Positions 1 to 60,952 are shown, counted from the whole stretch's first letter. The stretch: DNA of 60,952 bases, filler included, from Sphacelaria rigidula (GCA_964200075.2; 8 parts of 8 records of this genome joined end to end with filler, not necessarily neighbours in it), one strand, 5' to 3'. Notes: generated by a model from the sequence alone, not told the origin. Program-made: numbers and translations.

Positions 1-5
1 AAAAT

Positions 6-43
6 ACTAAGTCAAGCAACCAATGAGTACCCCCCCCCCCCCC
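6..43 (+). mobile_element. 3' tail fragment of the poly(C)-tailed LINE
   Basis: actaagtcaagcaaccaatgagtac followed by a C-run; matches the LINE end at 32690-32738. Confidence 0.8.
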
Positions 44-4092: not shown

Positions 4093-4195
4093 ACTACGAT
4101 AGGGGGGGGGGGTATTTTGGGCCATTTGTTGCTCGAAATTCCGAGTCAGATCGTCGTTGAAAGCAGCAACGGTTTTTCGAACAAGCTTGTTGTGG
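4093..4195. repeat. Dispersed repeat (second copy at about 45364-45465)
   Basis: ctacgatagggg...ggtattttgggcca...cgaaattcc...tcgtcg...cagcaac is shared between two scaffolds. Confidence 0.7.
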
Positions 4196-4754
4196 ATCCC
4201 TGACAGTGAATATGCAAATCTGCACCTGTCATAGCGTTGTCATAGGGTTTTCCCCAGGGTTGAATTTGCAGTCCTGTGTAGGCTTGTCGGCAAACTGCTG
4301 TACATATCCCGCATACTGCACCGTTATCAGCGTATGGGATCGGACACGCAACAAAATTTGTCGAAAGTGATTCATCCTTTTGTCCCCCAGTCCATGTATA
4401 ATGCATGGGCTAAAGGTTGAATAACTCTCACCAGCTTTCGCTGAATAGAGATCCCACACACTGGTCACGTGTGTATGTCCACACGCCTGTGCTTCAAGCG
4501 AACCAGGCGTGGTAAGATGCCAGGTGAACGGTGTATACCTCGCCTATGAATCCCCATAGTTCACAAAAAACCCGTGTTCCAGTGTTTACCAACACGAACC
4601 ATGTTTAGAAAAAGTCACTTAACCAATCGAACCTCTATTGGGACCCCAGCAATTTCGTATATTAGTAAATATAGACCATCACCCGGAGATATGAGTATAT
4701 ATCACCGACCGCCCGTTCACAAATTGAGCATCAATGCACACCCCACAACAGTGT

Positions 4755-7532: not shown

Positions 7533-7632
7533 NNNNNNNNNNNNNNNNNNNNNNNNNNNNNNNNNNNNNNNNNNNNTTAATTAATTAANNNNNNNNNNNN
7601 NNNNNNNNNNNNNNNNNNNNNNNNNNNNNNNN
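7533..7632. other. Artificial scaffold linker (44 N + TTAATTAATTAA + 44 N)
   Basis: Six-frame stop linker; identical 100-bp structure recurs 7 times. Confidence 0.99.
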
Positions 7633-8959
7633 TAGGCTCCTCTCTGTTGGGTGATGCAAAGTGTCCGAGACGTGTGTTGGCGATTTTCCCTGTTTGGGGG
7701 TCAAAAAGTGGCTCAAACGCCATAAAAGTGAACAATCCGTGGGCCAAAAATCTGTGTGCCATAGCATCCGGCCTAGTGACAAACAAAACAAGAGTCCTGT
7801 AAAAATGATTTTTTCATCCTTCTTCGTCATTTTACGTCCCAAAAGAAGAGCTATTTGGAGTTTGACACCTTGGAATGACTTGCTCTACTCGTTGAGACGG
7901 TTCCATGACATCTTCGCGTTTCCCGGTGGCCGCGTTCCGTTTTGGCAATTTTTTTCTTGTTCCAAGAACGGTCAAGGCCAGAGAAGAACGTGAGTTGTTT
8001 CCAGGTGTCATTATCTTTGACCTCTCGACGTGCAAGATACCTTCCTCGTGATCGCTGATACCCGGAACGTGGGAGCCGTTTCGTAACTAGTCGCTCTGTG
8101 TCATCCAAATCATGTACACAATCTTGTTCAGCCTCTACCTGTAGAGCCCCGGCGACACAGATGATGATATGTCCGATGTGTGAATGTTTCACTGCCTGCG
8201 AAACCACGACCTTGAAACCCGGAGATCCAGTCAATCCGAACGTAAAATCAAAATCCGCCGCGAAGATTGCATACACAACGTAGCCGCACTTTGTTTTTAT
8301 GCTTGGTTCACGACTACCTTTACGCTCCAGGATACGTTTGTTGCGTCAGCCTCGGACAACAACACGCGTTTTTCAGGGAACGTTTTCGTAGTCTCAGGGT
8401 TTTGTTCTGGCAGGTATCGAAGTGCTTTCCCGAGAGACACCTGGCCCTCGGTGTTGGTCTCACTATACCTCCCCCCCCCCGCGCCCTCATTTTTTCTGGC
8501 GGGGTCTCCGGGTCAATTGGGAAGTCACGAGTGAAGCATTTTTCTCTCGCCACCACGGCGCCCAGCGGTGTGAGCCTCAGCTTATCAACTTATTTCCCTG
8601 CCGATCGCTGCATCACTGGGCGACTATTCCTCCTCACGTTCTAATCGCTCATTTTCCCCCAGGCGTGCGGGGGATGGTCTTGACTGAGGTCTATCGATGA
8701 TGCCATGAGAGTACCATCGAAAACTGTCGCGACGTGTCCAAGATCCCCCTTGTGTAGACACATATGTGGACACATGAGTGCGGTGCAAGTTGTGTCCGTG
8801 TCCGTGAAGACTAGTGCTGTTATTTCGACGTCCTGGGGCGGGGCCGTCAGTTCATGAGCCTCATTTCCACGGTGTTTTGCTAGTTGTGATTTTGAGGTAT
8901 GTCTGTCGGCGTATGCGAGGGAGCCCCCAACAGGAGACGATGCACTCATCGGCCCGTCG

Positions 8960-15081: not shown

Positions 15082-15164
15082 GGGGGGCGTACTCATTTAT
15101 TGCTTGCCTTAGTCGTTTGACCATTGACCACGCTTCCCTTTCGAGACGGAGCACCGTTCCTACT
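15082..15164 (-). mobile_element. 3' tail of the poly(C)-tailed LINE
   Basis: Reverse complement matches 32642-32725. Confidence 0.9.
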
Positions 15165-15264
15165 NNNNNNNNNNNNNNNNNNNNNNNNNNNNNNNNNNNN
15201 NNNNNNNNTTAATTAATTAANNNNNNNNNNNNNNNNNNNNNNNNNNNNNNNNNNNNNNNNNNNN
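15165..15264. other. Artificial scaffold linker
   Basis: Same 100-bp N/TTAATTAATTAA/N structure. Confidence 0.99.
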
Positions 15265-22796: not shown

Positions 22797-22896
22797 NNNN
22801 NNNNNNNNNNNNNNNNNNNNNNNNNNNNNNNNNNNNNNNNTTAATTAATTAANNNNNNNNNNNNNNNNNNNNNNNNNNNNNNNNNNNNNNNNNNNN
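22797..22896. other. Artificial scaffold linker
   Basis: Same structure. Confidence 0.99.
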
Positions 22897-23287: not shown

Positions 23288-23650
23288 TACACCCTGGACA
23301 ATACAATATGTTTCCAATATATATTTGTCGATCAAATTGGGATTTTGCGATATATTGCCGGTGTAATATGTATTGGTACCCTTAGACTGCACACGTATTG
23401 TGCGCCCAATATATATTGATGTCGTGGGACTGCATGCATATTGCCCGACCAATATATATATATATATATATTGGTACTATTGGGTTGAATACATATTGTC
23501 CCATCAATATATATTGGAGCAGCGTGGGCGACAGCATATTACACCACCAATATATATTAGGGTCGCTTTGATGAGAACATACTGACCGGTCAATATATAT
23601 TGGGTCTGCGTGGGTGACAACGCATTGGCCGGTCAATATATAATAGATAT
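23288..23650 (+). mobile_element. Partial relative of the CAATATATATTG element
   Basis: Same terminus TACACCCTGGACAATACAATATG and same core palindrome, but different intervening sequence. Confidence 0.7.
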
Positions 23651-25443: not shown

Positions 25444-26241
25444 CTCCCTCTGGGCGGACTTATAAGCAAGGTTCGGACCAAAAGCGGTCTAACTCGGGCA
25501 TATGAAGGTCTTTTTCCGAACCGTTTCTGTTGTTTTTGGACCACCGCTGCGGAACGCACAGAACCGCTGTCTTTGAGAGGCCGCACCGAAAAAGTTCATC
25601 ACACACCCCAGCAGAAGTTGCTCGAAATCACCACCCCAACGTTTGGACCACCGCCCAAAAAAAGCCTTCGCATCTACTGGTGAGACATGTCTGCTGCTGA
25701 CAACGCCTCTCAGGGGCAAAAACGCAAGATTTTGGGTGATCTAGAGAGAGAAGAAGTCATTCGGTACCTGTTGACGCGCAGCGTCGATGGGGTGCTGAAG
25801 CGTGGTCTACGGTGCCCCAAACCGGGGATGATAATGAACTATCCCCCGCTTTTCGAGAGGGGACTCTTTATTTTTTTGCATCAAATGTCGTGCCCCATTC
25901 ATACGGGATATTCCGGGTTGTGAAACCTGTGACGGGGCTTGTTTATATGTCGCTGGGTACAAAAAAGCTGGATCTCCACCGAAGTGACTGACCAGGGGAT
26001 TTTTACGCACAATCTCCCCCCCCCCCCAACCTCATCTACTAGACTAACTGAGGCAAGCAACAAATGAGTACCCCCCCCCCTCCCCCAACCTCATCGATTT
26101 TTTTCCAATGTGGTACCTGATCATGTACAAACGTTGTCCGATGGTCCACAGTGCCCAGACGACCCGTTTGCGGCCATATCATACCAACCTTGCTTCTATT
26201 CCGTTTTTCCGAACCTCGCTTATGAACCCACCCAGAGGGAG
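25444..26241 (+). mobile_element. Internally deleted Tc1/mariner (Stowaway/DD39D-like) element
   Basis: TA|CTCCCTCTGGG...CCCAGAGGGAG|TA with ~34-bp TIRs; 25687-25805 encodes KRKILGDLEREEVIRYLLTRSVDGVLKRG, resembling the N-terminus of plant-type mariner transposases. Confidence 0.8.
26037..26081 (+). mobile_element. Very short 5'-truncated LINE tail insertion with TSD
   Basis: Flanked by CCCCCAACCTCATC at 26023-26036 and 26082-26095. Confidence 0.8.
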
Positions 26242-30428: not shown

Positions 30429-30528
30429 NNNNNNNNNNNNNNNNNNNNNNNNNNNNNNNNNNNNNNNNNNNNTTAATTAATTAANNNNNNNNNNNNNNNN
30501 NNNNNNNNNNNNNNNNNNNNNNNNNNNN
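30429..30528. other. Artificial scaffold linker
   Basis: Same structure. Confidence 0.99.
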
Positions 30529-30625
30529 GGGGGGGGGGGGGGGGGGGGGCGGGGGGGGGCGACTCATTTGTTGCTCGCCTTCGTCGTTTGACCGTTGACC
30601 ACGCATCCCTTTCGAGACGGAGCAC
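30529..30625 (-). mobile_element. 3' tail of the poly(C)-tailed LINE
   Basis: G-run followed by the reverse complement of the 70-nt tail. Confidence 0.9.
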
Positions 30626-30643
30626 AGCACAGCACACCCCAGA

Positions 30644-31140
30644 TGGGGTTGGCGTCGGTTGGCGATGACGCTATAAATCACGCCAATCACTGCGTGAGGC
30701 AACCAGGTTACCGATTTGTTTTGGGCGCTTGCGTTTTTTTTGCGGTAACCATTATGGTGGTCAAGCTAGATCATGTTGTGCGGCGTGGGAGAACCTCAAC
30801 TCCGCACAAAGGGGATGATCGCACTACGTGGTGTTTATATGGTGAGACACCCATGAGGCAGTGTATAAGCCGTTGCCGTCTCTGGAATTGACAACACCTG
30901 AAAATGAAGCAACCCATCGTAGGCTGTCATCCACATGCAAGAAAATCAGTAAGCTTCGGGCCGAACAATCTTAGCAAGATGCAGGCACCCTTCATGCGAC
31001 TCGTCGAACACACCACGGCGCTTGGTGATTGAGTGCGAGCCTGGTCCGGCGAAAACCCGGCGTGCTCCGTCCCGGCTTTGTAGGGATGCGAGGTCAATGG
31101 TCAGATGACTATGGCATGCATGATCATGAGTACACCCCCC
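30644..31140 (+). mobile_element. Apparently full-length ~500-nt non-coding C-tailed element (SINE-like partner)
   Basis: Multi-copy across scaffolds; starts GGGGTTGGCGTCGG, ends GAGTACACCCCCCC; 3' 80 nt homologous to the LINE tail. Confidence 0.85.
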
Positions 31141-31213
31141 ATCCGCCTCGAAGGATGCATTGTCAATAGTCAAATGGCTATGGCAGGCAATAAATGAGAA
31201 CGCCCCCTCCCCC

Positions 31214-32738
31214 GTGGTGAGTTATCACCCACTCTGTTCAAGGAACATATTAATCACCTGGTCATAGCGATAGAAGCACCAAAGCAAAGATTTGAGGCGA
31301 GAGAAGACACGGCATCAGGATTGATGTTCGCGGATGATTTCGCGGGGATATCGGAAACACCAGAACGATCGCAGAAGAAAATAGAGAAGGCGCTAGAATA
31401 CACTAGGAGATGAAAAGTGACAGCGAACGTGAATGATTGCGCGGTAGTTGTATGCAACGAAGATAAGAAAAATCCGATAGAGTTCAAATGGAAGTGGGGA
31501 AAAGAGGAATTGCCGATCGTATACCAGTATACGTACCTTGGCGTAGACATGTCAGAAAGTTGTTATCGGGATGCACACATGAATGAAATAATCGAAAACG
31601 TTAAGGCACAGATAGGCAAGATGGACGTGACGCTAAGAGACTCGCACCTAGATACTACGAATAAGAGCTAAACTCTAATGAATGTGATTGTACCGAAGCT
31701 GGAATATGCGGGAGAAACATGGGAGAAGAACACGAAGCTGATGAAGAAGTTGGAAACAGTACAGATGACAGCAGCTAAGAAAGTACTTGGATGCTCGAAA
31801 ACGATGACTAATTATACAGCATTGAGAACAGAATTGGGAATTTATCCACTTCAAACAACCAGAGACACGAGAAAATTGAACTGGCAACATGATGTAAGAG
31901 ACATATCGAAAAACATATGACCAGCCATAGTTGAAGGGGCTGTATGAAAGAAAGTAACGAAATGACAGGCTGGAATAAGGTGGGATAGCGTAGTCAAGAA
32001 AGTATGGAAGGAGGTAGGAGGAAACCTAGAAGACCAGATACCGTCCAAAGGTGAATGCGGGGGGTACAACACTCAAGTACGAGACATGATGGAAATAAGG
32101 TAAAGAGAAAGACTACGGTGAAAGGTAGACGAGGCAGAACACCGGAAGATATACGGCGAGTTGAGAGAGGGGATAGGTATGGAACCATATCTGCATGGCC
32201 CAATAGACTCGGCGAAAAAAATGAAAATGCGATTTCGGGTGTGGGACCTGGACCTGCCAGAAAGGAGAAACATATATGCCAGAAGTCGAGTGGGGGAGGA
32301 ATTATATGCACAGAATTGCCCATGTGGCAAAGCAACAGAGAGTAGAACTCATATGGTGGCAAAATGTGACCTACACAAGGAAGAATGGGACTTGCTAGAG
32401 GGAGGAAAATGGGAAGTAAACGAAGGTCGCATATCAAAAAGGGAAATGTGGAAAGTGGACGAAGATGGTATGAAACCGTTTGGTGGGTTAGACAAAAGCG
32501 AGATAACGATCGCTGCACTAGGAGACAGGTGATGGCCACAGACGGCGAATCATGAAAGGGATAAGATACGTGAACATTTTTGTGCAGTGTATGGAAAAAA
32601 CAGAATAAGCGCCCAAAGTGGTGGAAGTGTCTCTTTTTGGAGTAGGAATGGTGCTCCGTCTCGAAAGGGATGCATGGTCAATGGTCAAACGGCAAAGACA
32701 AGCAACAAATGAGTATGCCCCCCCCCCCCCCCCCCCCC
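31214..32738 (+). pseudogene. 5'-truncated, disabled non-LTR retrotransposon (LINE): RT, C-terminal CCHC, 3' tail and poly(C)
   Basis: LSPTLF, GLMFADDF, YTYLGV, CPCGKATESRTHMVAKC; several stops and frameshifts; ends gtgctccgtctcgaaaggg...gagtatg followed by a C-run. Confidence 0.93.
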
Positions 32739-33017
32739 AAACCCATCTGGCATTAATCCAAACAACACATCTTGAAAACCCCACAAANNNNNNNNNNTTG
32801 GGGGGGGAATGGGGCTCCGCCTCGAAAGGGGTGCAGGGGAAAAGGTCAAACGGCAAAAAAAAACAAAAAATGAGTTTGCCCCCCCCCCCCCCCCAGCTAT
32901 GGCATGCATGATCATGAGTACACACCAGCCTTGGTGAGACACCCATAAGGCAGTGTGGAACCCGAGGCTGTCTCTGTCCAGAAAGTGAGTATTCTGGAGA
33001 TTCCTATTATTGAACTC

Positions 33018-34960
33018 ATGGAAAATCTCAAAGCGTCTGAAGAGCGTCAAGAGAGAAACGATGCTCTACTTCGCGAGTTGTTGAGTGCTTGCAAAGACGC
33101 CTAGCGCCGCGGGCAAGAGGCCCCTGCTGGCGCAGACGAGAATGAGGCAGGCGGTGTCGAGGCTGCCGCCGCCAGCAGTCGATTGGAGACCGTTGCTCGA
33201 CAAAGAGGAGTCCCACACAGCAGTGTCTTTCCCGCTTCTGACGTGGTATTTGTAAGAAGAGGTGGACTATCATATGATAGCAGTAATCATATGGCTGGCG
33301 AGTCGGGGAATTTAGTTGTTCATGATTTTACGATGTCGCCGTGTGATGTATGCCATGTAAAGTCGGGGGTCCCCAAATTCGACGGCTCCGATCGTTCATT
33401 TTCCCTCTTAACATTCAAGTTTGAGGAGTTCACCAGGCGAGTCGGGTGTTTATTTGTCTTCCAAAGCGCAATCAATGATATAGTGTTAGGAGCTCCCGTT
33501 TTTCACGGCCATTTTCTTGTCAATACGTCAGGTATTCCTGTATCGGAGGTCAAGATGAACGTTTTGGCGTGGACGTGTTTGGATGAGAATGTCTCGAAGA
33601 CTGACATTCTGACAAAGATCTTTCGACTGCAATCCCCTGGTGCTGGTTGGAAGTTCCTTGTGGACTGGTACTTGATCAAGTCGATCAGTGTGACAGAGGA
33701 ATAGACGGAGAAAATTCAGAACATTACCATGCATAAGGGTGAAGAGCGAAGGAGGTACTCCGCCCGGGTAGATGAAATTTCTAGCGTTTTGGACTCTTTT
33801 GGAGAATTGAAGTCTGCGAATGAGAGTGTCCGCAGAATCGTGAGAGGCCTGTCTGACGATTATTCTTTACAATGCAGAACTTTCATGTTGAAAGAATCCC
33901 GCCAGCGTGTGGAGAGCATTTCAAGGCAGAGATACCTTGACATCCCAAAAACAGAGAAGGCCGGTCAGACTCTATTACCTAGTGTTACGTCTCATGTAAA
34001 CGACAGCAGTAGAACAGGAATATTTTGGGATGGTCAAGCTCGTGGAAGGAAGGGAGGAGCTCGTGGCGGTGGCCGCGGTGGCAGCGGCCAAGGTATTGAT
34101 ATTGATGGTAACGACAACAATAGCAGCAATGCTGGAGGAAACAACAGCGGTAGCCGTCACCTGTACACTCCCTCTTCAACTCCAAGGGAAGACCTCCGAG
34201 GAAAATGAACAAGGTGCAAGATGCCCGGGCATTACTCGGCGGACTGTCGTGCGCAAGTTATCCCCTCCCCGAGTCAGATGCCTTCTACTACAGATGGCAA
34301 CGGTGAGAGAGTTCCTTGTGTCGCTCTTGATCCGGTTAGTGCCTGCAGTGCCGAGGATAGTCAAGAGTTTCGATCTGAAAGCTGTGAGTTGGAAAAATGG
34401 CGTGCGGATAGTGCTGCGACTTTTCTCACGACCGGTTCAAATGAATTGATGTGTGATACTTATCCATCCCATGATAAGGTTATGAATGGAAATACGACCT
34501 TACTTCATGTTGAGCGCGTTGGTACGGTAACTATTGCTTTTCCGAGTGATACAGGAGATGTGGCATTGAGGCTTGAAGAAGTCGCTGATGGACCGGAGTT
34601 GAAATTCAACTTGTTCTCTTTGGTTGTTGCTCACCAAAACAAATTACACTTCAAGCCAGAGGAAGATGAGATCACACTCAGTGTTCTCGACGGCAGACTC
34701 AAGTTTGCGTTCAATGGCTCGTCCTTCTGTAAGCTTGGCTACCGGATAGACTGCAATGACGTCATTTCCCCCTCAAACGTTTTGCCCACGACGGAAATAC
34801 AGGTGAAGCCTTTTCCTGATGAGGCGCCTACTACTGCTGACCCAGTTCTTGCCCCCGGTGATTGCGTATCACCCACGCGTATTGATGTTTAATGATTTTC
34901 ACCGTTTGTATGGGCATTAAAACGAATTTATTTCGAACGAAACAGCGAAAGCACTTGTTG
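33018..34960 (+). pseudogene. Ty1/Copia gag-protease-(pre-integrase) remnant
   Basis: Gag (PKFDG, AWTCL, IVRGLSDDY), GR-rich linker, decayed zinc knuckle RCKMPGHYSADC, protease WRADSAAT and LKFNLFSL; frameshifted IDVNDFH..YGH; cut off by a C-tailed element. Confidence 0.85.
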
Positions 34961-34962
34961 TA

Positions 34963-35231
34963 AAGTAGCGATACCAGAAAATAAAGCAACTCATTGTTGG
35001 CTGTCAACCAAATGCAAGGTGATCAGTACGCTTCGGGCCGAACAATCATAGCAGGATGCAGCTGACCCTTCATGCGATTCGCCGAACACATCACGGCGCT
35101 TCGCGCTTGGTGATTGGTTGCGAATCTGCTCCGGCGAAAACCTGGCGTGCTCCGTCTCGGCTTGTAGGAATACCAGGTCAATGTTCTTATGACTACGGCA
35201 TGTACTGTCATGCGTACACCCCCCCTCTCCC
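34963..35231 (+). mobile_element. 5'-truncated C-tailed partner element
   Basis: Matches the 3' half of 30644-31140. Confidence 0.85.
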
Positions 35232-35242
35232 GCCCCTTTCAA

Positions 35243-35747
35243 GGATTGGCGTCGGTCGGAAACGACGCTGTGAAATACGCCACTCACCGCGTAAGCTAGG
35301 CAGCCACGTTACCGTGGGCTGTTTCGCTGGCGTTTTTTTGGCGGTAACCATGAATGGTAGTCGAGCTAGATCACATTGTGCGGGATTGCAGAACCCGAAC
35401 TCCGCGCAAAGGGGATGATCATGCTTCGTAGTGTTTATGTGATGAGATGCATGAGGCAGTGTAAAGGCCGTGACTGTCCCTGAAAGTGGCTATACCAGAA
35501 AATGAAGAAACTCAGTGTAGGCTGCCATTCATATGCAAGATAATCAGTACGCTTCGGGCGGAACAATCATAGCAGGATGCAGCCGACCCTTCATGCGACT
35601 CGCCAAAGATATCACAGCGCTTCGCGCCTGATGATCGATTGCGAGCGTGGTCCGGCGAAAACCCGGTGTGCTCCGTCCCGGCTTCGCAGGGATGCGAGGT
35701 CAACGGTCTTATGACTACGGCATGCAGTGTCATGCGTACACCCCTCC
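35243..35747 (+). mobile_element. Full-length C-tailed partner element, directly after the previous copy's C tail
   Basis: Collinear with 30644-31140 from GGATTGGCGTCGG to GCGTACACCCC. Confidence 0.85.
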
Positions 35748-35772
35748 TATTGCCACTGCCAGGTGAACATCA

Positions 35773-36158
35773 CATTCGTGAGGTGGGGAATATGTTTTCA
35801 AATGGCAGAGTTTTCCCGCAGTTTTACAGGCTATGGCAACCGATTGAGAGCTTTCACAGTGAAAGTTAAAAGGCTACCTTCGAAATGCGATCAGGTTGAT
35901 TATTGGTGGTTGGAATCTGGCATTTCTTACTTGTCAGCAATTCATAAGGTGAAAGCTTGCATCTTGGTGTCGGCTGCTCGCCTCATATCTGGGTAATGAC
36001 CTGCGCAATTTTTGCTATTGCTGTTCTTCTTGATCGCACGCGGTAGACGGCCATTACAGTTCCGCTGTGAACGTTCTTCAATCGGTCGTTATCCCCTCTA
36101 AAATTGCGGAAAAAATGCTGGTCCTTCACTTGAAAGTGTATACTCCATCTCACGAATA
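35773..36158. repeat. Old fold-back element with ~105-bp diverged arms
   Basis: ATTCGTGAG.TGG.G.ATA...CCGCA.TTTTA...ACCGATTGA pairs with 36048-36158. Confidence 0.65.
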
Positions 36159-37789
36159 TTCTGTTTCTCGCCATCAAGGCATGCCTAGGACAGATCTACC
36201 GTGGTCAATTTATCAAAACAATGGAGAAAAACGACAAAAAAAGCGCCGTTTGGCGGGTTCTTATAGGAGACGATCACTTGCGTCTCTCACAATCGTTTTG
36301 GAATGTATTCTCTCTACAGCAACCTCTTATGAGTCCTATCAAGAACATTATTTGTCCATATCGAAACCCAGATCTTCACACAGGTGAAAAAATGCGGTGG
36401 ATTTGGGAGCGATCGTTGGTCTAGCATCTATCTCTGTACTGCTATAGACCAGACACAATACGGCAACACAACACCTACCCCCAGCGCCCCGAAAAAACAC
36501 GCACAGATATCCACCACTCACCGCATAAGCTCTAGTGCTAGCTAGCCCTTGGCCATCTACAGACGGCAGTCTTTGACGGAATTCCGTTTTATATTGGAGA
36601 ATAACGGCCGCGTGCATCTCAAATTACAACCGGAAACGTGCCATTGCTGCCCCCTTGTGCGCGTGCGCCGTGCGCGCGTCTCACAAATCATTGTTCCTCG
36701 TTGAATTCAAAACGGTTTTGAGCAAGACCACGCATAACGTGCTCAGATGATGAGCAGATAGCGACGGCTCGAGCTGCTGGGTTTGGTTTGCGGGGGTAAT
36801 GAGTTCTTCACTTTCAGCTCTGATCGTGTTGGGTTGTGCATCAAGCCTTGCATGTTCTCCTGCCAAACTGACACTAATGTTCCTTTTAGGGCTGAAAACA
36901 AAGTCGTTTCTTGCAAAAGCGATGCGAGGAGGTAAGAGTCATTTCTCTCCCTGAAATCGCTTTTGTTACTCGATTTTGGGCCACTTTGTTTTTTGGGGTT
37001 CTGTTTTTTTTGGGGGGGGGTAATATGCAGCGACCAATCACAGGTTCTTTCATCAAAAACCAATTTATATAAAACGGTTAATCGTCTACGATAAGAAGCT
37101 GTCTTAAAGAGTTCCGAAATACTGTTCTCTAGGGCTGGGTACCGGTACACCCAGCCAATATATTACATACTGGCTGCGTCAGTAGCCAGTATACTGGATC
37201 CCGCCACTACCTTGGTTGAGTCCGCGGCGAAGCCCCGTCGGAGGCGCATGTTCTCGCGATTTGGCTCGACTAGAGCAAACATATGCGATTCGACTTAACT
37301 TGCAACTCAATTAGTTTGGTTTCCATTGAATGATGAGGCGTTAGTGTGGGACGTGCGGGGTTAAGAATGTACTGGCAGTACTGACTCCTTTTTTTCCAGT
37401 ACCGGTACACCGCTTGTGCCAGTAGTTCTGCCAGTGTGTGTTCTGGTCCAGTCCCCAACCCCAGGTTTTTCACGGTCCAGGATCAGGATGCAAGAAAAGA
37501 AGAAGGCGGTAACACACACGTTGGATGCTGACAAAAAGTTTAGGTTGAACTTCTGAGTATCGGAACCCTGTTTTGGGATCCTCATCCTGAAGTCTGAAGT
37601 GTCCTTCAGTGTTCAGGATAGCGTTGACGATGATGAAGCGCACCCGCCACCACAGCCACAGCTAGTTCACAATCAACACACCCATAACACGCAATGTGGG
37701 ACATCCATCACAACTGCCATCCTTAGCCATAATAAACCAGTCATTAATAGCAAGTTTTCGAGGTTCTGTTCTGTAGGGTACAGGTGCGC

Positions 37790-37970
37790 TCGGCAGGGTT
37801 TGAGCTTCGCTAGTGAACGAATTCATGAAGTACTGGGAAGAGGGAATGACCGCCATGATGGGCATGTTGTATTATTGGAGCTGGGAAATAGAGTCACACC
37901 CAAGAGATAGAGAGAAGCAGTAGTAGTAGAGCTCTACACTTTTTCAAGAAAAGAGACAAGAATGACCCGA
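37790..37970 (+). pseudogene. LINE RT N-terminal fragment
   Basis: VNEFMKYWEEGMTAMMGMLYYWSW...P..*REAVVV..FKKRDKNDP fits the start of a non-LTR RT domain (..E..KY.......L.N.I.....P..W....V..LFKKGD..DP). Confidence 0.6.
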
Positions 37971-38059
37971 CACTTTCTAATATACCCCCCCCCCCCCCCC
38001 CCCCCCCCCCGACCCCACACCGCCACCCCCCGTACGGATGGGAGCAGGAGCGGTTGTGG

Positions 38060-38159
38060 NNNNNNNNNNNNNNNNNNNNNNNNNNNNNNNNNNNNNNNNN
38101 NNNTTAATTAATTAANNNNNNNNNNNNNNNNNNNNNNNNNNNNNNNNNNNNNNNNNNNN
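38060..38159. other. Artificial scaffold linker
   Basis: Same structure. Confidence 0.99.
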
Positions 38160-38338
38160 CCCTGCTCCGTCTCGAAAGGGATGCGTGGTCAATGGTCAAA
38201 CGACTAAGGCAAGCAACAAATGAGTACGCCCCCCCCACCCTTCGCGGTGCTCCGTCTCGAAAGGGATGCGTGGTCAATGGTCAAACGACTAAGGCAAGCA
38301 ACAAATGAGTACCCCACCCCCCCACCCCCCCCCACCCT
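38160..38338 (+). mobile_element. Two head-to-tail LINE 3' tails, each with a C-run
   Basis: Near-identical 70-nt tails at 38163-38236 and 38245-38338. Confidence 0.9.
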
Positions 38339-39570: not shown

Positions 39571-40455
39571 CTGGAACGTAGGGCGGAACCCTGTTGTTTT
39601 TGGGATGCGAGCCGTAACGAAAAACAAAATGTGAGAGGCTGCCTGGGTCGGCGGTTATTGGTCGCGGGGATGAGATGCGTCCCTCCACCTTTTGTCGCCA
39701 CCTAGAAGTTGTTGTTGACTCCAGAAACGTTTTCGCCTGGTCACCCGTCACCACCTTCGTGTTGGTTCTCCCGGATGTGCTATTCGCCGTGCCCTAGTGG
39801 CTGATTCGTTACGCTCTACGTGCGGTGCTCGGATTTTTTCCAGTGTATTGGAAAACAAAGTCACCAATGAAAGCAAATGCTGGCGTGAAAGACCGAACAT
39901 TTTGCATTCTGCACAGAGACGGGGGCTGAGATGAACCTCGCCAGATGGCGGCAACATCTTGTGATATGTGGTGCTTTCGAGTGCCAGGAATGGATTCCTG
40001 TAAAGAGATCGGGGTGTACACTTGTTGACCTGAGGTCCGAAGCCTAGTCAAGCCATTGCGTAGCTTGAAGAAAGCCTGAAAAAATCTATTACCTGCAAAT
40101 GACTTGGCCGCTATCGCTTTAGAGTCCAAATCTAGTAGCACGCTCGAAACGACATAGCTTTCCGAACAACGTACCGTGCGATCTGGCGTTCCCACAGCGG
40201 CGTTTGAGCTCAGGGTACGGGACAGCGGTGGAAATTAGCAGAAACAAGCGTTTGCCAGTATGAAGACATTCGACGTCTGTCCACCTCACCTGCATTAAGA
40301 GGGTCATGCGCTTGTGTGTAGATATGGCGTGCGGCAGTTTGCGGTAGCTTTCCAACAGCTTCGGCATCGTGTACCTGCGTGTCATTGCAAATTTATTGAA
40401 CACAGCTTCCCACGGAGAGGGAGGATATCGCTCAAGTACACTCCCCCTGCTTTTC

Positions 40456-40692
40456 GAAACGGTGCTCCGTCTCGAAAGGGATGCGTGGTCAATGGTCAAA
40501 CAACTAAGGCAAGCAGCTGTTGAGTAACACCCCCCCCCCCCACCATCTCAACAAACAAAAACAACACCAAAATCGTAGAACACAAGCAGCGTACTTANNN
40601 NNNNNNNCTTTTGAAACCGGGGCCCGGCTCGAAAGGGGTGCGGGGTCCAATGTCCAAAACCTAAAGCCACCCGGCGGTTGGTTCCCCCCCCC
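40456..40692 (+). mobile_element. LINE tail insertion in an intron with 13-bp TSD (duplicated across a 10-N gap by assembly)
   Basis: CCCCCTGCTTTTC at 40443-40455 and 40693-40705. Confidence 0.75.
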
Positions 40693-40903
40693 CCCCCTGC
40701 TTTTCAACTACAGAACGTGCTCCCAAATTTTGTCGAACCCTTGATGACTTGTGACTAGAGCAATTACAACTCGCGCTCATCGACTACAAAGCACCTAGAT
40801 GCCTACTCAAATATCATATATAACAATATCAGTCTTCTTGAAACAAGAACAACGGGCAGTGGATCTTGTGGAAGCAGGCCATAATTTTCCCACGACCTCC
40901 TAC

Positions 40904-44400: not shown

Positions 44401-45690
44401 ACAAAGAGCCCGCGGACCAACCCTTAACGAAGCATAATCACAAACGTGGAATTGTCGGGCGATTCACAGATTCGAGTACTTCGCGCAACACATCTATCAT
44501 GACATGGAATCGAAAAAACGTTACAAAACAGGGGTTTGCATATAGTTGTTTTCCAATCTTCAAACTTGAGGTAGAGGCGCTTCCTAAGCACGAACAATAA
44601 ATTTAAATAGAGAGCAATCTAGAGAGCACACCGTAGCACAGTCACTGTTTCTTCAGCGTTCCCCTCGCCCCCTTTGTTCAGAGAGTGTTACCGTTATGTT
44701 CACAGTGGAATCGTCAAATTTCGTCATCACGGCTGGATTCCTCGGAGGTCGGTCAATGCGCGACAATCGATTGATCAATTAAATGGAGAGGAAGAAAGTC
44801 TAAGGTCTGAACGACAGCAACTGTGGATGCATAAGAAGACGGGATTTCTTCAGTCCCCATCGTTAGCCGCAGCGGACGAGGCAAAATGACCGTCGGGCGG
44901 AATAAACACCGTGGACCACGAAGGCAGGCTAGCCGCTGATGGCTCGAGGGTGCATGGGCTATCGACTTGCGTCCGTCCATCAACAATATGGCCAAAGGTA
45001 CAGCCAAGCCTCTCTTCCGCAAGAAAAGCAGTGAGATAAACGTTGACGTTGTGGCTGCCACTTGCTCCTTTATATCGATGCACGTGTGCAGATGGTGGGG
45101 CTACGCTGGCTGAGGCCAAACCTGTTGAAACCTGACTTTCAAGCGCTCCGGCATTAAGTAGGGCATGGTTGCACGCTCCCTTTCATGGTTGCACTTTTCG
45201 TGAATCCGAACGGTCTGCACCCTCAAACTAAAATCGGCCGCGGATTCGAGTGGATGCTTAACTCTCGTGAAACCCTCCCCTGCCATCCCCGGGTCAGAGG
45301 TCTCACTATTTGCAGACGCCCGTGGTTGCGGGAGGAGAACAAAAAAAGCATTTACCTAGTCATCCTACGATAGGGAGGGGGGTATTTTGGGCCACTTCTT
45401 GCACGAAATTCCATGTCAAATCGTCGTAAAAAACAGCAACAGTTATTCGAACGAGCTTGTTATAGATAAATAACGCTCATTCATACTGCTTGACACAGGT
45501 TTGAACAAAATACAAGCGCACCGCGAGTATGACGGGTAGTCTGACACATTTATGAGCCTCTTTTTTCGTGCAACTGAATACCCCCCCCCCCTCCCCCTGT
45601 CGGTCCCCCCCTCACCTCTAGACTCTTGGGTTGGCGTCGAGTGGCAACGGCGCTGTAAAACAAGCCATCAAAACCTAGACAAATGTACAG

Positions 45691-45790
45691 NNNNNNNNNN
45701 NNNNNNNNNNNNNNNNNNNNNNNNNNNNNNNNNNTTAATTAATTAANNNNNNNNNNNNNNNNNNNNNNNNNNNNNNNNNNNNNNNNNNNN
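45691..45790. other. Artificial scaffold linker
   Basis: Same structure. Confidence 0.99.
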
Positions 45791-46679: not shown

Positions 46680-46930
46680 CTGAATAAAGAATGAATAAAC
46701 GAAAAAAACGAATGAATGAAGGAGTGAATGAATAGATGAAGAGGTGAATAGATGAGTTAATGAATGACTGAATGCATGCATGAAAAACGAAAAAACGAAT
46801 AAGCGAGTAAGCAACTTGATAGATAAATAGGTGAGTAGGTGAGTAGGTGAGTAGGTGAATATATGAATGAATAAATAGATGAAGAGGGGAATGAATGAAT
46901 GAACGAACGAACGAATAAATGAACGAATGG
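46680..46930. repeat. Degenerate (GAAT)n microsatellite
   Basis: Direct reading. Confidence 0.85.
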
Positions 46931-47393
46931 AATCTGTTTCAGTTTTACTTTGTCGCAAGAGGGTGTACATGAGGGCAAATCATCATCACGAGATCATCGT
47001 GTTCGAGAACGGTTCCAAATTGAGAACAAAAATACCCTCAGTTCAAAGAAGTCCAACGGCAGGTTGTACCCCACCTCCAGCGCATCAGGGAGTCGAGTTA
47101 AGCTGAAACTAGAGCCCGGAAGGTTCGTGCGACGTGATTCAATCGTGCACACACAAGATGCTGACTAAAGGCAGGGCCGTGTAGGTGAACGACGGTGTAT
47201 CTGCGATGTGAACCCGCTGTTCGCTTGCTTGCTTGCTTCGTCGTGTCAGCCGATCTTTCCCTTCTCTTTTTCCGGGTTCCGACGCAAAACTTCAAACGGG
47301 CCAACAAGCAGAATAGTACACGCGCAAAGCATACCCGCAGTGGCATGTTCATCATCCTCCATACGTCTGATTCTTCCACACTCACCTAGGTCT

Positions 47394-49040: not shown

Positions 49041-50497
49041 TACACGTCGGACGAGTCATTACTGGTCGAAAGAAGTGCGCTCGTGGATGACTTTTAAAAA
49101 CACAACGAGCAATGACTCATGTGCTCGAGTCATCACTTCTTTTTACAACGAGCAATGACTCGTGGACTCGAGTGATTACTTCTATCTACAACGAGCAATG
49201 ACTTGAGTGGTCGCCCGGTTATTTTTTTTTCCACAACGAGCAGTGACTCGGATGTTCGCCCTATTAATTTTTTCCACAACGAGCAATGACTCGAGTGCTC
49301 GCCCTATTATTTTCTTCCACAACGAGTAATGACTCGAGTGCTCGCCCTATTAACCCTCTTGGGACTGACCCCCGACTAACACGGGGCTGACCATATGTTG
49401 CTGAAATAATGAATAACAAGTCAAGGAGCGACGTGCTCAATCACGGCGAGGCGAAATTTTATCGACCAGACCCGAACGACCAGCGCGGGGACTGTTGCCG
49501 AGTGTGATGTCACTGCAAAGATCGTGTGGGGGGTCTATCCCTGGCCCAGATAAGCCTTCCCAGGTTTTCAAAGCCAGGATGATCAGAGCATGGCTCATCG
49601 TACTACTTGCATTCAGTATAGCGTTCCCGGGATTTCCCGGGAGTTTTGGGGGTCGCTAGCATGTACTAAACCGTAGTAATTACACTAACACAGGGTGGAG
49701 TGGGAAAAACCGGGAAGGAGTGTACATACGACAATGTGGGCATTTTCATGAGGCACTGAACACAGGTGGGCCATGAAAAGACAGAAGGAGCTACCGTCAT
49801 GAATTCTGCTCATCCCTTTGTCGATGACTTGCAGAACAGTGTGAACATGTATGTAGTTGGCAGGGATGAACAAGCTCTGTATAGGCAGCCGATCTCCGTC
49901 GCTGAGAACTGCCCAGAACGTGCAACGGGGTATGCAGCGGCAGTTGTTGCTGCACTCGGAGAGGCGTACTGCACTGTACTGTACTGTATATATGTGCGCC
50001 ACAACGCCCATACCCGTCGAAGAGAATTCGTCGCATGCAACAAAGAGGGAAATGGCGGGCCACCCCGACCACGGAGGGCTGTGTGGCAAGGTGTTGGGGA
50101 CAATAATATCATACAAAGCCACAAGTGGGGGGCGGTCCGCCGGTCGCCGCATCATGTTGAAAGCTCTCTACGGCGACACATACTGCTTGCTACATCAGAT
50201 GTACATCACCTAATGCGCACCCTGCACCTGAAAATAGATTGGGTAAAACTTTCGGTCTCCCTCATAATCCTGCGGTTACACACGCAGGTTTTCAACAACA
50301 TGCCACTGTTTCGTGCAGACGCCAAACACGTCATTCCTAACCAGCCTCATAAGTCGTTTTGGAGACCCGGTCCCAAAGTGGTTAATTTTTTCCACAACGA
50401 GCAATGACTCGAGTGCTCACCCTATTAATTTTACGGCCAACGAGCAGCTCAAAGAGTGCGAGTGCCACGAGTCACACTCGTGCTCGTCTGACGTGTG
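49041..50497. mobile_element. hAT-type non-autonomous element with a 43-45-bp tandem array
   Basis: TIR TACACGTCGGACGAG / CTCGTCTGACGTGTG; perfect 8-bp TSD AAAACCAC (49033-49040, 50498-50505); ACAACGAGCAATGACT units at 49102, 49145, 49188, 49233, 49276, 49319 and 50393. Confidence 0.88.
49354..50381. mobile_element. piggyBac-like non-autonomous element nested in the hAT array
   Basis: TTAA|CCCTCTTGGGACTG ... CGGTCCCAAAGTGG|TTAA; the host array resumes in register after it. Confidence 0.8.
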
Positions 50498-51344: not shown

Positions 51345-51815
51345 CTTTTTATGGGATAAACATGATGGTGGTCAAGCTAGAACATATTGTGCGGGGTGGA
51401 GAACCCCAACTCGGCGCAAAGGGAATGATCGTACTACGTAGTGTTTAGATGATGAGACACCCATGAGGCAGTGTGTAACCCGTGGCTTATCCCTGGAAGT
51501 AGCGATACCACAAAATGCAGGAACGGGTTGTAGGCTGTCATCAATTTGCAACAATAATCAGCACGCTTCAGGCCGAACAATCTCGGCAGGATTCAGTTCA
51601 CCCCCTCGTGCGACTCGCCGAACACATCACGGCGCTTCGCGATTGGTGATTGATTGGGAGCCTGGTCCGGCGCAAAACCCGAAGTGCTGCGTCCCGGCTT
51701 TGTAGGGATGCGAGGTCAATGGTGCGCTGGCATCCAACATTTACAAGTACAGCCCCCTCGCGCGTGGTCAATCGTCAAACGGCCAAGGGAAGCAACAAAT
51801 GAGTACCCCCCCCCC
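51345..51815 (+). mobile_element. C-tailed partner element fragment plus a short LINE tail, in the WDR33 intron
   Basis: 51345-51723 matches the partner element; 51760-51815 matches the LINE tail followed by a C-run. Confidence 0.8.
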
Positions 51816-52948
51816 CGCGCGCGCGCGCCGTCGTGGGATTACTCCTGACACGCCCCGAAATCACTTCTACCACCGTCCGTGTTTAAACCCGCCATGAACA
51901 GCACTGCAGCTGCATCCAAACGCGCTGTACCGTACTGCACTGTACTTTACAATAGCAACGCACTCCCGTGTTTTTGTTCCGAATGGTCGGTGTCACCTCG
52001 CCGTGCAAAACTTGACCACCTACCCGCTAGCTCGCAATTGTTCCGGGGTCATTTAGAAGTAGAGTGTACCTTTTTCGACAGAGGGATGTATGATCCCACG
52101 GACAGTACACATTGCCCACTCTTTGGCAAGTAAACACCAACACGTTGAGATACTTTGCGCTCAGATCGGTGGGACAGGGTGATTGGGGCAGGTTCTCGAG
52201 GTGCAAATCGTTGGTGCGGATCGCAGGTAGACTTGGAGCTCTGATATGTTTCTTCGACCGGCCGTTGTGTTTCCGCTGGGTTCCGTCGTTACATTTTGAA
52301 ATGGCAAAAACAAAAAAGGTTTTTCGATACCCGACTGAGCATGGTTTTCGGATGGTGCCTCTGGCCGGCGTGCGCTGTGACTAGGGAAGGTATGATGGAA
52401 TTCCGACGGCCTCCATGAGGGACTGGGGGGTGACTAGGAAAGAAATTATTTCAAACTATATACGTGGCTGCTTCCTGTGTACGTTTAGCTTTTCAAGCCC
52501 AAGCAGGCAGGGTACAGCGGCGGATGAGAAGAGAATCCTCTTTCGTCTTCCGGCCTTTCGAGGCAAAAACATTTATTTTTCTTCTTGCAGCGGTGTTGCA
52601 AGTGTCCCTGGTTGTAGTACCTGAAGAATTCCGAGTGAAAATGGTAATTTGAGGGAGTTCTGCCATGCCTTGCAAGTTCCGGATATTTGGTAGGAAAATC
52701 GTACCGTTTTGAGGCAAATTCGCCAAAGGCGTACCTTTTCTAGTTATGAACAAAGGCCTGAAAAAAAGCATACTCACGAGAACACCCCTCCCAAGAAAGA
52801 AAAAAAAAAGTTGAATACAGCCTACATTGATATAGGACACACAGTAGTACAGTCATTCCAACCAAAACAAGAACAAGAATACTTTTCGTACTCGTAGCGA
52901 AACTGGAACAACTGCATCCCCCTTGTAACCTCCCGCGTCGTGGGTCAC

Positions 52949-53217: not shown

Positions 53218-53256
<39 letters not shown>

Positions 53257-53321
53257 ATTAACATACAAACCAGAAAACAAAAACCATTTACCTTTCTCCC
53301 CCAAAAAACCAAAAACGAAAA

Positions 53322-53421
53322 NNNNNNNNNNNNNNNNNNNNNNNNNNNNNNNNNNNNNNNNNNNNTTAATTAATTAANNNNNNNNNNNNNNNNNNNNNNN
53401 NNNNNNNNNNNNNNNNNNNNN
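53322..53421. other. Artificial scaffold linker
   Basis: Same structure. Confidence 0.99.
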
Positions 53422-57904: not shown

Positions 57905-58832
57905 CCAACACCTCCTCCTTTCGATTACTGGTATATATCTTTCTTCTTTCTGTCAGGTCCAGGTCCCCCACCCGAAATCGCAGTTTCATATGTTTCGCAG
58001 CGACCATGGGGCCATGCAGATATGCTTTCATTTTGACCCCTTCTCTCGACCACCCGTATATCTGCAGGTGTTTATCCTCGCCCACCTTACGTCTGAGCGC
58101 TCCTTTCCCCCTTATTTCTATCATGTCTCGTACGTTTGCCTTGTGCCCCGCGTCTTCACCTATGGATAGTATTTCGTCTTGGTTTCCTCCTATCTCCTTC
58201 CACACTTTCTCGACTTCTCCATCCCCCACCTTATGGCATGCCCTCTCGTACTTTTCTTCCGTACAGCCCTATCAACTATAGCTGGCAGTCTCTTTTTCTG
58301 CGTGTTCTTCAAGCTATATTGTCATCTCAATATCCTCACGTCTCTTTTTGTTTTAAGTGGGTGTAATGCGTGAGAGGATCGCGTGCTGAGAGGACCGCGC
58401 CGTAGTTCAAACCACCGCAGGATCGATGTTTTTCAAAACCAATCGGGCCAGTCCCTGCAGGTACCACGCCCCTGACCATAACCCCAACATTAACCCTAAC
58501 CCTAACCATGGGGATGTTCAAATTCCGATGCGGTCCTCTCAACACGCGGTCCTCTCACGCATTACAGTGGGTACATTCTCAGCTCTGCTCTCAGTGCCGC
58601 ATTTCTCGTCGGTTTCGAGCATCCAAGCATCTTCTGAGCTGCTGCCATCTGTACTGTTTCCAACCTCTCCACCAACTTCACGCTTCCCGCCCATACGTCT
58701 CCTGCATATTCCAGCTTTGGTATGATCAAGTTCATCAGGATGCATCTCTTAATCCTAGTGTCTAGGTGCGAATCTCTGAGGACCACGTCCAACCTGCCTA
58801 CCTGTGCCTTACCCTTTTCTATGAGGGTCATG
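57905..58832 (-). pseudogene. Second disabled copy of the same LINE (RT C-terminal part)
   Basis: LRDSHLDTRIK, PKLEYAG, LETVQMAAA, YLHGP, KLRFRVGDLDL are homologous to 31600-32280; interrupted by a MITE. Confidence 0.9.
58362..58566. mobile_element. TG..CA MITE (Ginger-like) with 5-bp TSD and CCCTAA repeats
   Basis: 24-bp TIR TGTAATGCGTGAGAGGA.CGCGTG; TSD GTGGG; inserted in the LINE ORF. Confidence 0.9.
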
Positions 58833-58844
58833 CTACTTCCAAGT

Positions 58845-60030
58845 AGCGACTTGGACATAACTTATGTCCAAGTCGCGACTCGGACATAGCTCATCATGTC
58901 ATCCACCGGCGATTTGAATACCCATCCGCGCTCGTCCCATGTTTCTTGTTTCGACACCACAGCACCTGCAATACACTCACACAGTCCTTGGCCATCGGTC
59001 AAGCCATCACACGGTGCCAGCGGCCTCGTAGCGAGAGAGAAGCGCGCCTATTGTACAGTGCCAAAACCTACCGCCGCCCGACTGGAGGTGGACATAAGCT
59101 ATGTCCAAGTCGAGACTCGGACATAGCTCATGTCCACCACCGGCCATTTGAAAACCTATCCGCGCACATCCCATATTTTTTGTGTCGACACCACAGCACC
59201 TGCAGTACACTCACACAGTCTGTGGCCATCGTTCAAGCCATCGCACGGCGCCAACGGCCTCGTAGAGAGAGAGAAACGCGCCTGCTGCACAGTGCCGGAG
59301 AATATCACCACCCGACTGGAGGTAGACATGAGCTACTATTGTAATGCGTGAGAGGACCGCGTGCTTAGAGGACCGCGCCGTAGTTCAAAACACCTCAGGA
59401 TTGATGTTTTTCAAAACCAATCAGGCCAGTCCCTGCAGGTACCACGCCCCTGACCATAACCCCAACACTAACCCTAACCCTAACCCTCACCATGGGGATG
59501 TTCAAATTCCGATGCGGTCCTCGAAGCACGCGGTCCTCTCACGCATTACAACTATGTCCAAGTCGCGACTCGAAAACATTTATGTCCATCACCAGCGATT
59601 GGAATACCTGTAATACCTGTCCGCGCTCGTCCCATGTGCCTTGTATCGACACCACAGCACCTGCAATACATTCACACAGTCCGTGGCCATCGTTCAAGCC
59701 ATCACATGGTGTCAACGGTCTCGTAGCGAGAGAGAAACGCGCCTGCTGCACAGTGCCAAAAATTACCGCCGCCCGACTGGAGGTGGACATAAGCTACTTT
59801 GTCCGAGTCGAGACTCGGACATAGCTCATGTCCACCACCGCCGATTGAGATACCTGTTGTTCGCGCCCGTCCCATGTGCCTTGTATCAACACCACAGCAC
59901 CTGCAATACACTCACACAGTCGGTGGCCATCGTTCAAGCCATCGCACGGTGCAAACGACGTCGTAGCGAGCGAGAAACGCGCCTGCAGCACAGTGCAGAA
60001 GAATACCGTCACCCGACTGGAGGTGGACAA
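58845..60030. repeat. Tandem array of four ~235-245-bp units
   Basis: CGACTGGAGGT.GACA recurs at about 59080, 59315, 59775 and 60015; unit 3 is interrupted by a MITE. Confidence 0.9.
59340..59550. mobile_element. Second copy of the TG..CA MITE
   Basis: Same TIRs; TSD ACTAT (59335-59339, 59551-59555). Confidence 0.9.
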
Positions 60031-60952
60031 GGTTGAATTACTTGCTCGGCGAGGGTCTATGTTTGAGAAAGATCGTGGGACCTCTGTCGTTGTGTTGATT
60101 CCCCGGTTGAAAGAAGTATAGTATACTCTCCACGTAAAACGTAAAAACCCACTTGTGCACTACCCAAAAGGGGAGGGTTCAGTCATGCAAAAATCGCTAA
60201 TGCAAAAATAATACGTCATAGCTTCATTCCTTGGCCACGCGATGAGGCGTGTGCCCCCAGCAGATACTTACTGCAACCGCCATATCGGGTATACCTTGAA
60301 TAACAGAACTGTATCTCTTATTTGCCCTTCCCCCGTATGTCATGATCTTAGCACAATATCTACTTCCGTTGCATCCAGGCATGTTTACATGTATATATCC
60401 ATGGGTGTGAGTATATTCGACTAGTCCTCCTACTCACGGCTCAACTCAACTCAGTTCTCAAGTCTCAAACCCTAGTAGACGTATTCTCATCCGAATGTAC
60501 GAGGATGTTCCATCCCGAAAACGAAAATATTCAATCCTACATTACCAAGCACAAAACAAATCGTCCCAGCCGTGTGCAGACATACTACGGTAACGTCATC
60601 TACTCAGCAAACTGAAAGTCCTTCCTTTACTCCTCTTCCTCAATACTTGATAACATATTCATGCTCATGATATATCCCGTCACGCCTTTAAGTACTGGAA
60701 GAGAATTTGGATTCAAAATTCAAATTATCACAAACCAAAATGTCAAAAATCATACAGATATATTCAATAAAATAGTAAAATACATCAACCAAACGCAAAG
60801 TCGAAAAACAGCCCTGTTTCCCGATGTTTTCCACGGCAAGTTTCGTGACGATCGAAGTCCAACACTAAAGCCATTGAAAAAATATGGGCAATGGCGTAGA
60901 AAAGGTATACCTTCTCGTTTTTTGCCTAGGAAAGGTACGAAAAATGGCCAGA

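Follow-up and report, generated by a model that had tools for sequence, protein, structure and literature searches.

Features of the LINE copy and its protein relatives

The locus at positions 31214-32738 carries what its sequence indicates to be a dead, 5'-truncated non-LTR retrotransposon (LINE) of a brown-algal family, APE-type by its full-length relatives. The preliminary description had presented it as an element encoding a reverse transcriptase (RT) and a CCHC motif and ending in a run of Cs, and this was borne out: after TGA and GTATG, the sequence reads C21 at 32718-32738. The features of this copy, referred to below as the main copy, are as follows.

31214-32712 (+): remnant of the LINE open reading frame (ORF), 5'-truncated and decayed, matching residues ~880-1360 of the protein P0001
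31327-31338 (+): FADD motif of the RT, in the translation of the frame starting at 31216
32317-32367 (+): CCHC motif CPCGKATESRTHMVAKC, in translation, separated from FADD by a long spacer
32710-32712 (+): TGA stop, in the context ...AACAAA TGA GTATG and then C21
32713-32717 (+): GTATG (5 nt), the entire 3'UTR
32718-32738 (+): poly(C) tail, C21, after which the unrelated flank AAACCCATCTGG begins

The main copy shares 60% identity with P0001 (1360 residues) over residues 880-1360, and contains 7 in-frame stops in the frame of 31216, which corresponds to the C-terminal half of the RT. The RVT_1 match in this truncated copy is weak (E 0.025, below the cut-off). In the relatives P0001 and P0002, RVT_1 is matched with E-values of 1e-30 and 2e-32, and Exo_endo_phos (PF03372) with 3e-12 and 8e-15, respectively; in P0001 the APE-type endonuclease and RVT_1 lie within one ORF. 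The APE endonuclease, N-terminal to the RT, was seen in the relatives only: the main copy starts at residue ~880 and is without this domain because it is 5'-truncated. Contigs encoding P0001-like proteins measure 4.1-5.9 kb, in agreement with a full-length size of about 4.4-4.9 kb for the element and one ORF of ~1330-1360 aa, predicted to comprise an N-terminal region, the APE endonuclease, the RT and a C-terminal CCHC motif.

All named protein matches are from the brown alga Ectocarpus. In a PDB sequence search, the best match was human L1 ORF2p (the solved ORF2p structures, E 6.6e-21), with an R2 protein nearly level (E 8.8e-20), and 'APE + RT LINE' is the finest assignment reached with Pfam, the PDB sequence search and the ESM Atlas. 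A metagenome scan returned 80 loci, of which 79 are distant LINEs (at most 39% identity); the one close locus, L001, is 91% identical to P0001 residues 115-996 and does not extend to the 3' end. Viral contigs were scanned twice for further copies and none was found.

The C-termini of P0001, P0002 and P0003 read ...NGQMT(K/T)ASNK and fall at the same point as the TGA of the main copy; in the closest relatives the ORF ends in ...VNGQMTKASNK stop, at the matching position. The 3'UTR is GTA or GTACG in other LINE copies. The ORF thus stops just 3-5 nt short of the 3' end, and the last ~70 nt of the element are therefore coding sequence. The ending V[NYD]G plus 2-10 residues before a stop was found in 17 of 121 relatives, all of them within the closest 28, and in 1.5% of control windows. 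In the more distant relatives P0007-P0015, P0022, P0026 and P0045, the ORF closes with ...GCVVNG...AMAA stop. Such a conserved coding end fits a 3' end that may be selected at the nucleic-acid level as well.

Poly(C) ends across the window

The window, that is, the whole stretch of DNA analysed (60,952 bases), consists of eight ~7.53-kb scaffolds joined by seven N44-TTAATTAATTAA-N44 linkers.

7533-7632, 15165-15264, 22797-22896, 30429-30528, 38060-38159, 45691-45790 and 53322-53421: linkers, at a constant spacing of 7,631-7,632 bases

The pieces are unplaced scaffolds that were size-sorted and then concatenated, not contiguous DNA. Since they are separate scaffolds, the repeat copies they carry are independent loci, and distances and neighbourhoods across linkers are meaningless. 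The DNA is eukaryotic, with interspersed repeats throughout; no tRNA genes (ARAGORN) and no Rfam families at gathering score were found in the whole window.

Several further repeats were noted in passing. At 33105-34892 (+), DNA of single-copy depth carries a fragment of an LTR (copia-like) retrotransposon: its one frame, interrupted by two stops, reads as gag/pol-like and matches Pol_BBD (PF22936, E 3.4e-07). Degenerate telomere-like CCCTAA repeats occur at 58470-58566 and 59454-59550, within the region 58362-60036. They are embedded in repeats ~980 nt apart (58362-58566 and 59340-59550, 88-95% identical) and accompanied by units of ~208 nt at 58894-60036. A fragment of the same LINE family on the minus strand, 57912-58825, adjoins these CCCTAA-bearing repeats and is disrupted by them. 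Three tandem arrays are unrelated to the LINE, with an 8-nt unit (TGAATGAA-like, 46705-46935), a 43-nt unit (49090-49395 and 50382-50444) and another 43-nt unit (23388-23646).

The LINE family (family A) is represented in the window by copies ranging from 34 nt to 1.5 kb, which differ in the extent of 5' truncation and have the 3' end in common. Its short copies are given below together with a copy of a second, non-autonomous family (family B).

1-43 (+): tail copy, end CAATGAGTA + C14, cut by the window start
15083-15164 (-): tail copy, end AATAAATGAGTACG + C6, cut by a scaffold end
26016-26095 (+): LINE tail copy of 34 nt (26037-26070) with tail C10T (26071-26081)
30529-30632 (-): tail-only LINE copy of ~70 nt, tail C9GC21, which runs into a scaffold end
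30636-31140 (+): family B, non-autonomous, ~500 nt, ends in C6; last ~75 nt in common with the LINE
31143-31213 (+): LINE tail of a second subfamily, 60 nt, 5'-truncated (...GCIVNSQMAMAGNK stop), tail C5TC5, inserted behind the family-B tail
38161-38338 (+): two tandem tail copies, the second at 38242-38324 with tail C4AC7A
40448-40541 (+): diverged tail copy of ~80 nt, end GTTGAGTAACA + C12, inserted directly after ...GTACACTCCCCC
51753-51823 (+): tail copy of 41 nt (51765-51805) + C run, behind a family-B-like ...AAGTACAG C5 end

The pattern AAATGAGNNNNCCCCC, with at most one mismatch, has 11 matches in the window compared to 0.33 expected, and none of 100 shuffles reached 11. Other tails of the family had been described as ending like the main copy, and every one of those named is among these 11 matches except that at 40530, which is the diverged copy ending in GTTGAGTAACA + C12. 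A second scan was independent of the Cs: its query was the 17-mer tail end GCAAGCAACAAATGAGT, which holds no part of the C run, with up to 4 mismatches. All 11 of its matches have 8-11 C within the next 12 nt, compared to a background of 0.86% (0.0086) of random window 12-mers that hold at least 8 C. An A-rich 3' end is a usual, though not a defining, trait of LINEs; in this family, an A run follows none of the 11 tail ends and a C run follows all 11. The tails read C14, C6, C10, C9GC21, C5TC5, C21, C8, C4AC7A, C12 and C11, a spread from C6 to C21, or to >30 with interrupted runs included. The poly(C) end is thus real, element-borne and family-wide. As a rough control, among 80 distant metagenome LINE loci, many of them truncated, a C run of at least 7 near the end of the longest ORF was found in 1, and an A run of at least 8 in 8.

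The preliminary description had further stated that neither AATAAA nor an A-tail is present. The second part stands, and A tails are likewise absent from the least-diverged copies, where they would have spoken against a C-tailed family. The first part does not, as two copies (15091-15107 on the minus strand, and 31183-31199) carry AATAAATGAG, in which a C-to-T change creates AATAAA across the last codons. Both copies still end in Cs, and the hexamer is therefore probably incidental.

Three tails, at 32798-32894, 40608-40697 and about 53218-53321, were set aside as not being clean copies, since they lie in error-ridden sequence beside gaps. They comprise C16 at 32879, C14 at 40684 and C35 at 53218 (minus), and are near-duplicates of LINE tails, with runs of G, A or T substituted in, next to scaffold ends or gaps of 10 N. 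Their appearance is that of low-quality read ends past a homopolymer which the assembler retained.

Homopolymers of at least 10 nt in the 61-kb window number 15 for C/G vs 3 for A/T. Nine of the 15 C/G runs are attached to a family-A tail end and 6 are without a recognised tail, and the scaffold breaks fall at C/G runs. Further C runs of at least 10 nt, after ...TA or ...CT, were observed at 8471, 15322 (minus), 26016 and 45581. In 37807-38010 (+), a short piece of RT (P0001 residues 693-735) precedes, by ~50 nt, ...CTAATATA + C26, the long C run at 37985; the arrangement could represent a copy with an internal deletion, or else the tail of a different family. A repeat ending in ...AAATGGCCCAAAATA/GCAACAAATGGCCCAAAATA with C11 or C6TC3, at 4102-4197 (-) and 45373-45467 (-), with the C run at 4102-4112 and at 45373, respectively, was considered as a free tail and rejected because both copies continue alike (TATCGTAGG...) past the C run. 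The C run in the GCAACAAATGGCCCAAAATA repeat appears to be either internal or the mark of a shared insertion site.

Shared 3' ends and insertion next to C runs

Family B and the LINE have a common end, GTGCTCCGTC...GGTCAATGGTCA...ATGAGTACA (also written GTGCTCCGTC...GGGATGCG.GGTCAATGGTC...ATGAGTACA). In an alignment of 7 family-B ends and 7 LINE ends, the mean column identity was 73% over ~75 nt. Family B is very abundant and gave no protein match. With regard to the criteria for a SINE, it has the 3' end in common with a partner LINE, and a pol III head is lacking: no tRNA, 5S or 7SL head was found, with no Rfam match at E up to 1 (30560-31215) and no tRNA by ARAGORN.

The common end was also inspected for RNA structure. 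The folds of seven 3' ends did not surpass those of shuffled sequences (z from -1.9 to +1.2), and no conserved structure was supported. The recurring candidate hairpin UGGUC-N4-GACUA is 86% paired, shows no compensatory change and was equalled in 500 of 500 shuffles. A closing helix GUGCUC/GAGUAC is not claimed, as it was judged by eye, the loop region having been misaligned by MAFFT between LINE and family-B sequences.

In the window, family-B tails are short or decayed, with at least 8 C in the next 12 nt for 3 of 9 matches. Contigs from four public runs (at most 3 samples, 2 studies) were aligned to 30529-38059, with the family-A C runs at 30529-30565, 32709-32787 and 37974-38059 omitted; the independent confirmation obtained therefore applies to family B only. 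After 31140, the end of the family-B C6, numerous contigs depart from the reference (455 for X1, 449 for X3 and 544 for X4), and their consensus shows 15-22 further Cs and then mutually unlike flanks. Since these C15-C22 tails occur in contigs of other runs, the family-B C tail is genome-wide and no assembly artefact. None of the contigs listed bridges 32665 to 32935. Joints from 31140 to 31038 were found in 24-42 contigs per run, and joints from 31140 to 32652 in 12-22 per run; these show that truncated copies lie directly behind tails genome-wide.

The same arrangement is seen in the window. All 6 visible 5' junctions of family A lie 0-9 nt after a run of at least 5 C, and 5 of these 6 runs are the tails of older copies. 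At the main copy the stack consists of family B with C6, then the 60-nt tail of the other subfamily with C5TC5, then the 1.5-kb copy with C21. The main copy shows no duplication beyond Cs, and clear target-site duplications are limited to three short copies.

The clearest case is at 26016-26095, where the order is C12-AACCTCATC, the 34-nt LINE end, C10T, and CCCCC-AACCTCATC. A perfect 14-nt duplication, CCCCCAACCTCATC, is present at 26023-26036 and 26082-26095 and starts with Cs. The target of the insertion (26037-26081) was an older C12 run, and the empty site can be rebuilt as C12-AACCTCATC. Comparison of the filled with the reconstructed empty site indicates that ~10 extra Cs were brought by the insert. 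The preliminary description had named a C run fully present at the empty site, with no Cs added, as an outcome that would count against it, and this is not what was found. At the second locus, the copy at 38242-38324 is flanked by C8ACCCT (38229-38241) and C9ACCCT (38325-38338), so that the second copy must have entered the tail of the first. At the third, the copy at 51753-51823 is flanked by CCCCCTCGCGCG and CCCCCGCGCGCG, which are 11/12 identical (51753-51764 and 51812-51823). The duplications at these three loci are 12-14 nt long, with a C run at the 5' end.

In target-primed reverse transcription (TPRT), the position of the bottom-strand nick is given by the left edge of the duplication, whose bases correspond to the 3' end of the primer. 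L1 duplications start with A, in keeping with a T-ended primer that pairs with poly(A). The duplications described here start with C, and the primer would therefore end in G, with the bottom-strand nick inside a G run. The three duplications thereby support the earlier proposal of a C-tail/G-primer version of TPRT.

Proposed mechanism, alternatives and comparison with known elements

We hypothesize, with a rough probability of 0.68, that this family, which has a (C)n end instead of poly(A), integrates by TPRT from a G-run primer annealed to the C tail. The endonuclease would cut the bottom strand within a stretch of Gs (Cs on the sense strand of the element), and the G-ended 3'-OH would pair with the 3'-terminal C tract of the RNA and so prime cDNA synthesis. 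A variable annealing register, or slippage, could then give tails of 6 to >30 C, and a second nick 5-9 nt past the C run would give duplications starting with Cs. The last ~70 nt of the LINE would double as coding sequence and as the RNA end recognised by the RT, and the ~500-nt family B would borrow the LINE machinery by having its last ~75 nt and its tail in common with the LINE. Because old tails are C runs, new copies would stack behind old ones.

Alternatively, the Cs might arise during integration instead of being copied from the RNA, through untemplated addition of Gs by the RT to the nicked end before the RNA is engaged, or through its repeated slippage on the one or few Cs after ...GAGTA(C). 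The wide variation in tail length (C6 to C21, >30 with interruptions) and the odd bases at the boundary between tail and duplication, as in C10-T-C5 (26071-26086) and C4-A-C7-A (38312-38324), are in line with this explanation. However, insertion beside pre-existing C runs in 6/6 cases and duplications that start with C are predicted by annealing and are not needed by untemplated addition, and the source copies bear C runs that read-through transcription would put into the RNA. We therefore consider it unlikely that the Cs arise in this way.

Another explanation is that the element has no tail of its own and is a site-specific LINE inserting just upstream of existing (C)n microsatellites. A C run is found beside every visible 5' junction, and APE-type LINEs that insert into microsatellites are known, as set out in the available text of a review (PMC3812793). 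But at 26016-26095 the filled site has gained a C10T that separates the insert from the downstream copy of the duplication, and extra Cs are likewise present at 38312-38324. Moreover, since 5 of the 6 target C runs are the tails of older copies, the runs stem from elements originally. A tailless element thus appears quite improbable. That the C runs are sequencing or assembly artefacts, such as homopolymer errors at read ends beside gaps, is hardly credible: the three tails in error-ridden sequence by 10-N gaps or scaffold ends, and the breaking of scaffolds at C/G runs, are what one would expect of artefacts, but the clean copies sit in scaffold interiors with unique flanks and duplications, and in four other public runs the family-B end is followed by the C run in hundreds of contigs.

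The proposed priming of a C tail by a G-ended nick might extend beyond the copies in the window. At somewhat under even odds, a whole brown-algal LINE clade, together with its non-autonomous riders, would have swapped the A tail and T primer for a C tail and G primer, with an endonuclease that nicks G runs and an RT that recognises a still-coding 3' end (...GCVVNG... stop, a 3-5-nt UTR, Cn).

To our knowledge, the complementarity between primer and tail, which is central to the start of reverse transcription in LINEs, has so far been investigated nearly exclusively for A tails. A natural family with C tails and C-starting duplications would offer an independent test of it, and biochemists would gain an RT/endonuclease pair whose tail and nick preferences differ. 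It would also explain the abundance of C/G homopolymers and the assembly breaks at them (15 vs 3 A/T in 61 kb). If the clade-wide swap is real, the tail base would be free to co-evolve with the nick-site preference, and the elements would be the main source of the C/G mononucleotide runs of this genome and also of the copy clusters at old tails. Long G/C runs can form unusual DNA structures, so that replication and genome stability may be affected by tails present in the thousands. If the transcripts are not polyadenylated, RNA methods based on oligo-dT would miss them, and repeat annotation that seeks poly(A) would misplace the ends of the elements. No description of a poly(C)-tailed LINE was found in the literature accessible to our search, a weak blank given that the bracketed term 'poly(C)' is unsearchable, and there is about one chance in three that the C tail is already recorded in a repeat-library entry or a supplement.

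In their available text, the Ectocarpus genome papers mention LINEs as a class only, with nothing on their 3' ends (PMC3145265; bioRxiv 10.1101/307165). The Ectocarpus LINEs belong to the same host group and provide the sole named protein relatives of the element described here.

L1-type LINEs have a poly(A) tail, nick at TTTT/AA and anneal a T primer in TPRT. The algal LINE resembles L1 in the combination of APE, RT and C-terminal CCHC (in its relatives) and in its frequent 5' truncation. It also resembles L1 in that the target-site duplication starts with the homopolymer base of the tail, which points to annealing between primer and tail. It differs in that its tail is C and not A, no polyadenylation signal is used and the 3'UTR is 3-5 nt long, and the algal relatives have a single ORF, compared to the ORF1 plus ORF2 of the L1 clade.

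'Stringent' LINE/SINE pairs such as the eel UnaL2/UnaSINE1 have a short-repeat tail, (TGTAA)n in this case and (TAA)n in the Drosophila I factor, that is thought to be renewed by slippage, with reverse transcription starting inside the RNA and not on poly(A). As in UnaL2/UnaSINE1, the non-autonomous algal partner carries the 3' end of the LINE, and the algal elements would likewise renew a short-repeat tail by slippage and not begin on poly(A). Unlike in UnaL2 and the I factor, the algal tail is mononucleotide C, no 3' stem-loop is supported, and the shared 3' end is coding in the LINE.

Elements of the Waldo, Mino, Kibi, Koshi and Dong type fall in the clades R1, Tx1 and R4. The available text of the 2013 review describes them as microsatellite-targeting APE-type LINEs, with the targets ACAY for Waldo, AC for Mino, TC for Kibi, TTC for Koshi and TAA for Dong (PMC3812793). 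The algal LINE likewise inserts within a defined simple repeat, as seen from the 6/6 junctions after C runs, and its new copies build up in or behind such repeats, a likeness of behaviour only. However, the targets of those elements are di- to tetranucleotide repeats, with no C/G homopolymer among them in the available text of PMC3812793, whereas the targets of the algal LINE are mostly the older tails of its own families.
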